A stretch of 64,000 nucleotides of DNA from assembly GCF_022846255.1 (NCBI RefSeq), contig NZ_AP025682.1; one strand, 5' to 3'. Within the stretch, counting starts at the first letter, position 1. Every line of letters starts with the position of its first letter. The notes under the pieces were generated by a model. That model ran no database searches. It was not told the DNA's origin and saw only the letters and a list, made by a program, of their open reading frames with translations. Positions 44,219 through 44,658 of the stretch are shown here, one piece after another. The position numbers and the translations under genes were made by a program. The DNA comes from Escherichia coli. Lineage in GTDB: Bacteria > Pseudomonadota > Gammaproteobacteria > Enterobacterales > Enterobacteriaceae.

Positions 44219-44598
44219 AATGAATCCTTTTTCGATTTATGAGAATAAATACTCATTTAAAGGTGAAAACATTTTGCCTGCAAATGATTATCAGGAAATA
44301 TAACATTATCGAAGTATTCAAATTAACAACCATTAAATAACATTAAACATTTTTAACGTAAACATTAAGAATATTCATCTTGTTATCTGTCTGTATTTTA
44401 ACCAGAATTAAATCAGTATTAGATGCCGTATGAATATCTCGAAATGTTGCGGTGCATCACATACAAATCATCACCGCAGGACCATAGTATTTACATAAGG
44501 TTTGTCCCCCGGAGGTAGTCATCACAGCAATCGAGTAAATTAGCTTCACCACGGTATATTGTTTCCGTAGAATACCCATAATTATAAGAGAGGTTGTT

Positions 44599-44658
44599 AT
44601 GATTGAACGTGAACTGGGGAACTGGAAAGACTTTATCGAAGTTATGCTTCGTAAGTAA
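44599..44658 (+). CDS. ypfM: 19-aa small protein YpfM (MIERELGNWKDFIEVMLRK)
   Basis: Not in the ORF track (too short). GAGAGG RBS upstream of the ATG; sequence matches the small protein I recall as YpfM; a stem-loop follows. Confidence 0.6.
   Translation: MIERELGNWKDFIEVMLRK

Follow-up and report, generated by a model that had tools for sequence, protein, structure and literature searches.

Compact RNAs of 150-200 nt that have their own promoter and intrinsic terminator, enclose a tiny open reading frame (ORF) and associate with Hfq are exemplified by yneM/mgtS, SgrS/SgrT and AzuCR. Here, we compare with these systems the ypfM gene of Escherichia coli and the spacer separating it from the divergent gene yffB, both located in a 64,000-nucleotide stretch of contig NZ_AP025682.1 (hereafter the window, in whose coordinates all positions are given unless stated otherwise). 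The closest described relative of the ypfM transcript is STnc250 of Salmonella, an RNA recovered by Hfq coimmunoprecipitation (coIP), encoded between acrD and yffB and containing the ypfM ORF (Sittka et al., PMC2515195). STnc250 was 4-fold enriched in the Salmonella Hfq coIP, yielded a growth-phase-dependent Northern band of ~220 nt and was reclassified by its authors as a small mRNA instead of a non-coding small RNA (sRNA), in a report that named yneM/mgtS (STnc570) alongside ypfM as a short Hfq-associated small mRNA (PMC2515195). Our analysis points, with a probability that we put at about 0.88, to a divergent yffB-ypfM control region comprising the annotated 19-amino-acid gene ypfM, its promoter P1, a shared terminator and an mRNA linked to Hfq and to the sRNA ArcZ, along with a putative second promoter, P2. 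Earlier work has already documented ypfM with its transcript and main promoter, as well as the binding of H-NS, and in this respect the work is a rediscovery of an annotated gene; what we add is a conservation map of the spacer, the candidate second promoter and the link between the invariant coding sequence and a pairing site of the sRNAs ArcZ and SdsR.

In the arrangement that we propose, the sigma-70 promoter P1 starts ypfM at A44580, and the resulting mRNA of ~175 nt ends at a terminator probably shared with acrD, with a strong Shine-Dalgarno sequence driving the translation of ypfM. This mRNA binds Hfq and was captured in vivo paired with ArcZ. The yffB-proximal 212 bp of the spacer are freely evolving DNA, coated by H-NS and IHF, that would contain the leader and promoter of yffB and hold its transcription at a low level. 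The ypfM-proximal 168 bp contain conserved promoter modules, including the rigidly spaced positions 44435-44495 as the putative second promoter. The features of the ypfM side are as follows:

44599-44658, plus strand: ypfM coding sequence, 19 codons followed by TAA (translation, RefSeq, mass spectrometry (MS))
44587-44593, plus strand: Shine-Dalgarno sequence AGAGAGG, 5 nt before the ATG, nearly invariant across genera
44580, plus strand: main ypfM transcription start site (TSS), A44580, with a 5' untranslated region (UTR) of 19 nt (Kim 2012, TSS-seq)
44545-44573, plus strand: promoter P1, -35 TTCACC, 17-bp spacer, -10 TAGAAT (consensus scan, 9/12 matches)
44470, plus strand: minor 5' end, 5'UTR of 129 nt, 2 reads (Kim 2012, v2 coordinate 2589017, PMC3415461)
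44435-44470, plus strand: block A, TaTTTCAAAATATTGC-N6-TCACATaAAATT (logo of 56 distinct sequences)
44483-44495, plus strand: -10-like CATAGT (44483-44488) and conserved CA (44494-44495), candidate P2 with its TSS at ~44495
44613-44621, plus strand: ACUGGGGAA, codons 5-8, complementary to the UUCCCUGGU motif common to the sRNAs ArcZ and SdsR
44638-44650, plus strand: small hairpin GAAG-UUAUG-CUUC within the final codons of ypfM, corresponding to helix 1 of STnc250 in Rfam
44682-44706, plus strand: 3'UTR hairpin, AAGAACC...GGUUCUU (fold prediction)
44717-44752, no strand: intrinsic terminator with A-tract, GC stem and T-tract, 5 nt from the acrD stop

The ORF running from the ATG at 44599 to the TAA stop (44656-44658) translates into MIERELGNWKDFIEVMLRK, identical to YpfM, and RefSeq annotates ypfM at exactly the matching place in K-12 (b4606, YP_001165325.1 / WP_001386977.1) and in E2348/69. 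Its absence from the ORF list compiled for the window arises because that list starts at a minimum of 20 amino acids (aa), below which the 19-aa ypfM falls. As many as 52 ORFs of at least 20 aa overlap these 3 kb; an ORF as short as ypfM is expected by chance, and its status as a gene rests on comparative evidence. For this comparison, 80 loci from different Enterobacterales species were fetched by a YffB anchor, and 71 of them harbor a 19-aa ORF of the same family divergent from yffB, from Escherichia to Dickeya. The 72 sequences collected encode 21 variants of the YpfM peptide, all but one of which are 19 aa long. Lelliottia nimipressuralis (L029) has lost the stop codon of ypfM, and the frame continues to a length of 30 aa (MIERELGNWKDFIEDMLRNDLQEELQEHLI). 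Minor-allele fractions summed over the gene reached 0.69, 1.07 and 3.37 at the first, second and third codon positions, respectively, a coding-type substitution pattern consistent with a translated product. In nine of the 80 loci (L055, L063, L069, L073-L077 and L082), the 1.5 kb upstream of yffB yielded no ypfM-like ORF. These nine comprise Yersinia, Lonsdalea, three of four Erwinia loci and several Enterobacteriaceae, among them Kosakonia oryziphila; ypfM is therefore not universal in Enterobacterales.

Across genera, the 5'UTR and coding sequence of ypfM are almost invariant at the nucleotide level. Uncommon codons are retained (GGG in 66/71 and CTT in 57/71 sequences), and same-codon identity to the window amounts to 0.81 for ypfM versus 0.55 for yffB of the same genomes. 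A point that counts against a special constraint is that single 19-codon windows of yffB reach a same-codon identity of up to 0.84, which places the 0.81 of ypfM within their range. The excess of conservation at synonymous sites is hence suggestive only of a constraint at the RNA level, and we do not claim it as proof.

The 701 bp around ypfM were found in 5,425 of 5,426 complete E. coli genomes and are 100% identical to those of E2348/69, 536 and similar strains; the window comes from a B2-type strain. The locus of K-12 (b4606) shares with the window the 19-aa product, the neighbors, the orientation and the 380-bp length of the spacer, and differs from it at seven spacer positions, at none in the coding sequence and by no insertion or deletion, which is to say in nothing of substance.

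Upstream of the gene, P1 displays the features of a sigma-70 promoter, namely both hexamers, a spacing of 17 bp and a TSS 7 nt past the -10, with the binding of the holoenzyme taken from published data, and it is conserved in 68 of the 72 sequences. The same hexamers were derived from genomic SELEX (systematic evolution of ligands by exponential enrichment) with the RpoD holoenzyme, in which P1 was called a 'constitutive' ypfM promoter (PMC3946193). Peaks from sigma-70 chromatin immunoprecipitation followed by sequencing (ChIP-seq) convert to 44584 and 44600 (Myers 2013, PMC3688515), and the sigma-70 occupancy on P1 was 322 aerobically versus 817 anaerobically, ~2.5-fold higher in the latter condition (PMC3688515). 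The main TSS was mapped in M9 glucose to K-12 v2 coordinate 2588907, with an upstream sequence ending in ...TAGAATACCCATA (Kim 2012, PMC3415461); since K-12 and the window are free of indels in this region, this coordinate corresponds to A44580. No ypfM entry was present in the Cappable-seq and 3'-end-mapping supplements.

From A44580 to the terminator, the transcript is monocistronic and ~175 nt long, and its equivalents in other genera mostly measure 146-180 nt. Taken at 178 nt, it forms three hairpins and folds better than shuffled sequences (z = -2.9). The sequence of its 3'UTR is not conserved across genera, and in an uncultured Cedecea (L054) we observed an insertion of ~100 nt in the 3'UTR before the terminator. 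The terminator, by its 14-bp stem followed by TTTTTT, qualifies as rho-independent, and an alignment of 32 loci revealed compensatory changes at seven of its 11 pairs. From its symmetry and position, it probably acts for both ypfM and acrD.

The initial annotation of this region, made from the letters alone, had described ~380 bp of AT-rich non-coding sequence between yffB and a short ORF with a good ribosome-binding site, recognized as YpfM, followed by a stem-loop and a terminator, with acrD as the other flanking gene. This description stands: the spacer between yffB and ypfM is exactly 380 bp with a GC content of 0.318, the translation and the RefSeq annotation agree on YpfM, both flanking genes are those of RefSeq, and the stem-loop and terminator correspond to the hairpin at 44682-44706 and the stem at 44717-44752. 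Its remark that the ORF track had missed the gene is true as an artifact of the length cutoff, not as a discovery. The evidence of translation that it had called for is already in the literature, where intact, formylated YpfM was seen by top-down MS and also by data-independent acquisition and parallel reaction monitoring (PMC12529367), and proteomic studies of E. coli commonly detect YpfM (PMC12529367). The same is true of transcription, through the Northern blot and Hfq coIP in Salmonella (PMC2515195) and TSS-seq in E. coli (PMC3415461).

The shared gene order and the remark of its authors that STnc250 contains ypfM support the ypfM mRNA as the orthologue of Salmonella STnc250. Both share the acrD/yffB locus, the strand relation and the ypfM ORF, and the Rfam model covers the coding hairpin and the terminator. 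The match to this model (STnc250, RF01409), the sole meaningful Rfam match of the region, spans 44638-44757 end to end (model positions 1-94) with 35.0 bits and E = 1.3e-4. Weighing against the assignment, 35 bits is less than the Rfam gathering threshold of 42 bits; the score falls short because the E. coli 3'UTR is longer, with ~25 extra nucleotides compared to STnc250.

We next consider the ypfM-proximal 168 bp of the spacer (44431-44598), which have 40% GC and are conserved in blocks; conservation of the motif module described here was drawn from the 71 loci. The distance of block A from the ypfM ATG stays within 150-166 nt across spacers of 292-1044 bp. Its positions 44437-44449 resemble the IHF consensus, WATCAAnnnnTTR, and its dyad TTGC-N6-TCACA (44447-44461, centered at 44453.5) is CRP/FNR-like, the dyad core agreeing at 7/10 positions with the CRP consensus. 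In the 56 distinct sequences, CATAGT and the conserved CA follow TCACA at fixed spacings of 21 bp and 32-33 bp, respectively. The dyad center is exactly 41.5 bp upstream of the conserved CA, an xATAxT hexamer, which preserves the A and T important in a -10, occupies -12 to -7 relative to it, and there is no -35.

The closest described counterparts of this module are the class II CRP/FNR-dependent promoters, of which galP1 is an example. Likeness to them extends to the 5-N6-5 dyad, the perfect TCACA half-site, the center at -41.5, the -10-like hexamer and the lack of a -35, and differences lie in the left half-site, which is TTGC and not GTGA, and in a negative FNR ChIP result. Since its geometry matches that of a class II activator-dependent promoter, we propose 44435-44495, tentatively and at somewhat less than even weight, as a second, activator-dependent ypfM promoter, P2, whose TSS would lie at ~44495 and whose transcript would have a 104-nt leader. 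The Salmonella band of ~220 nt is closer to the expected transcript of P2 (~236 nt) than to that of P1 (~152 nt), sizes obtained by proxy from Citrobacter and the Rfam consensus, as was also done for the Salmonella yffB start at -97 treated below.

Four observations weigh against P2. No TSS has been published at 44495, the reported ones being 44580 and 44470 only (Kim 2012), in M9 glucose, in which CRP would be inactive. Similarly, there is no sigma-70 peak over block A in glucose minimal medium (Myers 2013, PMC3688515). TTGC, on the left side of the dyad, agrees poorly with a CRP half-site. FNR, as a candidate for the factor binding the dyad, was rejected, with neither an FNR ChIP peak nor a predicted site here in the wild type or the hns stpA mutant (Myers 2013).

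Other readings of the same bases were also considered. A sigma-54 promoter built on the invariant TTGC was discarded, there being no GG 10 bp upstream, as were promoters on the minus strand of block A, for which no acceptable hexamer pair was found. A sigma-32-like TTCAAA/TCGAAA-N13-TCACAT would suit the minor 5' end at 44470 and was entertained as a possible reading. The spacer between ypfM and yffB is not listed by RpoH SELEX (PMC5493296). No conserved RNA fold was detected in the leader at 44495-44545 among 57 loci.

The alternative that survives best assigns block A to a regulator, either IHF with a CRP-family protein or a protein of another kind, that acts at a distance on P1 or on the yffB promoter. 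Block A, placed ~126 bp before the P1 start, is strongly conserved and keeps a constant spacing to ypfM, which would suit such a site, as would the IHF interval determined by ChIP on microarrays (ChIP-chip), which reaches 44454, the MarA ChIP peak in the ypfM<>yffB spacer of Salmonella, the lack of a published TSS at 44495 and the recurrence of a related TCACA/GCAAT motif at 44519-44541, just upstream of the P1 -35. However, a binding site alone leaves unexplained why CATAGT and CA are equally conserved at fixed spacing, and the geometry of block A and P2 fits a class II promoter to the base. We consider the distal-site explanation possible but doubtful.

Just upstream of the P1 -35 we also observed a second, weaker conserved block (AATCACAGCAATCGGTTAAAT; 44519-44541 and 44510-44525). 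It contains another TCACA, placed N6 after GGAGG or GGGGG, and its reverse complement shares ATTGCTGTG with block A. This weaker block could be a second site for the factor of block A, centered at ~-62.5 from the P1 start.

At the level of the mRNA, E. coli Hfq CLASH (crosslinking, ligation and sequencing of hybrids) recovered 13 ArcZ-ypfM hybrids in exponential and transition phase, a pair also found in RIL-seq (RNA interaction by ligation and sequencing), together with one hybrid of ypfM with the SdsR region (PMC7213987). The UUCCCUGG seed of ArcZ matches ypfM codons 5-8. ArcZ and SdsR share UUUCCCUGG, which forms nine consecutive pairs with ACUGGGGAA at -12.7 kcal/mol. Full-length RNAduplex predictions of ArcZ or SdsR against the ypfM mRNA scored no better than shuffled sequences and were uninformative, and the argument uses the seed match and the published hybrids only. 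Because the mRNA is Hfq-bound and was captured paired to ArcZ, the output of ypfM is probably controlled post-transcriptionally in addition to its control by the promoter.

These data also bear on the possibility that the ypfM transcript is mainly a regulatory RNA, either dual-function or acting as a sponge of ArcZ and SdsR, and that the peptide is of secondary importance. The RNA is bound by Hfq, its 13 ArcZ hybrids are comparatively many (most rows in the part of that CLASH table considered have 1-2), an SdsR hybrid was recovered as well, and the nearly invariant 5'UTR and coding sequence keep the rare codons GGG and CTT. Nevertheless, purifying selection acts on the peptide itself, several codons of which vary synonymously, the protein accumulates, no target of the ypfM RNA is on record, and the excess of synonymous identity falls inside the local range. 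Unlike the dual-function RNAs SgrS/SgrT and AzuCR, ypfM is on record only as an mRNA partner paired with ArcZ and SdsR. A primarily regulatory role is quite unlikely in our assessment, and we retain that of a translated mRNA. An extended proposal, in which the invariant 5'UTR and coding sequence would be a docking site that titrates, or is controlled by, the sigma-S-dependent ArcZ/SdsR (UUCCCUGG) and in which the activator-dependent second promoter at 44435-44495 would provide an isoform with a 104-nt leader, is in its entirety a speculative one, which we rate as unlikely.

The other half of the spacer and the flanking genes comprise the following features:

44219-44430, no strand: AT-rich DNA next to yffB, including the 5'UTR and promoter region of this gene (composition, low conservation)
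44298-44306, minus strand: candidate yffB promoter, conserved extended -10 (TGTTATATT on the minus strand), with a predicted TSS at ~44291 and a 5'UTR of ~73 nt
44407-44434, minus strand: yffB promoter predicted by Shimada, TTCATA-16-TTTAAT (PMC3946193)
43862-44218, minus strand: yffB, ArsC-family reductase, divergent from ypfM (ORF and RefSeq annotation)
42731-43858, minus strand: dapE
44757-47870, minus strand, with its stop at 44757: acrD, convergent with ypfM (ORF and RefSeq)

Direct reading of the sequence places the yffB start codon (CAT on the plus strand) at 44216-44218 and the spacer at 44219-44598. The order dapE, yffB, spacer, ypfM, hairpin, terminator and acrD is the context expected for YpfM, divergent from yffB-dapE and convergent with acrD. 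The yffB-proximal 212 bp (44219-44430) have a GC content of 0.25. Values this low occur in just 0.11% of 200-bp windows over the 64 kb, whose overall minimum is located in this segment. Other stretches with a 200-bp GC content of at most 0.30, none of them as low, are located at 1921-2200, 19411-19740, 20001-20300 and 59341-59620. This part of the spacer aligns poorly between genera and is the site of the length variation, with the whole spacer spanning 202-1044 bp across genera.

In K-12, ChIP-chip gave two H-NS intervals, corresponding to 43529-44319 and 44510-45240, and an IHF interval corresponding to 43607-44454 (Myers 2013, PMC3688515), and genomic SELEX also marks the spacer as H-NS-bound (PMC3946193). 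The region resembles the H-NS-bound type-A divergent spacers (Shimada 2014) in being AT-rich and in having RpoD promoters in both directions and an H-NS site, and is unlike them in its ypfM-proximal third, which has a GC content of 0.405 and lies in the gap between the two H-NS intervals (44320-44509). Expression of yffB changed with O2 solely when hns and stpA were mutated (PMC3688515), and TSS-seq of E. coli in M9 glucose revealed no start for yffB (Kim 2012, PMC3415461), observations that fit a silencing of yffB by H-NS.

The one well-conserved element of the AT-rich part is AATATAACA (44298-44306), which most genera carry at a distance of 66-110 nt from the start codon of yffB. Judging from this conservation, its extended -10, TGTTATATT, is a likely candidate for the yffB promoter. 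In Salmonella, the yffB 5'UTR measures 97 nt, and SdsR represses this mRNA (PMC5137417). Conservation of the promoter that Shimada predicted does not extend past Escherichia and Citrobacter.

Within the presumed yffB leader, we also observed an inverted repeat, ATGAG-N8-CTCAT (ATGAGAATAAATACTCAT; 44239-44256), which is similar to a Fur box with one extra base and which is specific to Escherichia in the alignment. In Salmonella, mutation of fur raised yffB expression 2.6-fold, and a Fur site is predicted for this gene (PMC3212961). Inside yffB, a published dapE TSS maps to 44128 on the minus strand (K-12 v2 2589359; 8 reads), 270 nt before the dapE ATG, with a weak TTGGCT-16-GACTAT upstream of it, and a strong sigma-70 ChIP-seq peak is located near the yffB 3' end, at ~43902. 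Given this TSS and this peak, most dapE expression seems to originate at promoters within yffB and not in the spacer.

The initial annotation had further suggested that the spacer may hold regulatory sites or a small RNA. The former part is borne out by the promoters, the H-NS and IHF binding and the conserved blocks, and the latter finds no support, for lack of any Rfam match, internal terminator or conserved fold in the spacer; the only 'sRNA' on record at the locus is the ypfM mRNA itself, catalogued as STnc250. An independent sRNA gene could be argued from the minor plus-strand 5' end at 44470 and from one Hfq CLASH hybrid with ChiX, whose plus-strand fragment, 44415-44444, lies upstream of all mapped ypfM starts (PMC7213987). 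Nonetheless, no Rfam match occurred in the spacer at E <= 10 except chance eukaryotic ones, and none at the gathering level in the whole window; the weak matches mir-310, SNORD94, CDKN2B-AS and the CsrC terminator were dismissed as chance or generic terminator hits. Likewise, no terminator-like site lies within 44219-44598, the 57 loci share no conserved fold downstream of block A, the AT-rich part is conserved neither in sequence nor in length, and RefSeq annotates nothing in the spacer. The combination of hallmarks expected of an independent Hfq-dependent sRNA (its own promoter, conserved sequence or structure and its own terminator) was not found in 44219-44598. Single reads are expected from spurious initiation in AT-rich, H-NS-bound DNA, and the ChiX hybrid, a single read in AT-rich DNA, may have such an origin. 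All this renders a separate sRNA gene very improbable. A promoter-like TTGTTA-17-CAGAAT at 44380-44408, observed on its own account, would initiate at ~44415, near the fragment in the ChiX hybrid.

Finally, a second tiny ORF in block A (ATG 44430, MNISKCC...), which would explain the conservation of the block by coding and which is open in Escherichia, Citrobacter and Enterobacter with the variable N6 amounting to two codons, is scarcely credible and was rejected, for its start codon is not conserved (absent in Leclercia, Kluyvera and others), it lacks a Shine-Dalgarno sequence, its stop varies from codon 11 to codon 23, and its third positions are as invariant as the first and second.

As to the significance of the locus, a 19-codon gene was rightly recognized here from raw sequence, with the omission from the ORF track reflecting a simple length cutoff, which makes ypfM a useful calibration case. 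YpfM is among the few tiny E. coli proteins repeatedly seen by MS. The ArcZ/SdsR pairing site inside ypfM is recorded only in supplementary CLASH and RIL-seq tables, and the promoter-like module upstream of ypfM is absent from the annotation consulted; both are leads for work on small proteins or on sRNA networks. If the docking site and the second promoter proved true, the 19-aa YpfM would be tied to ArcZ, SdsR and the oxygen or stationary-phase circuitry.

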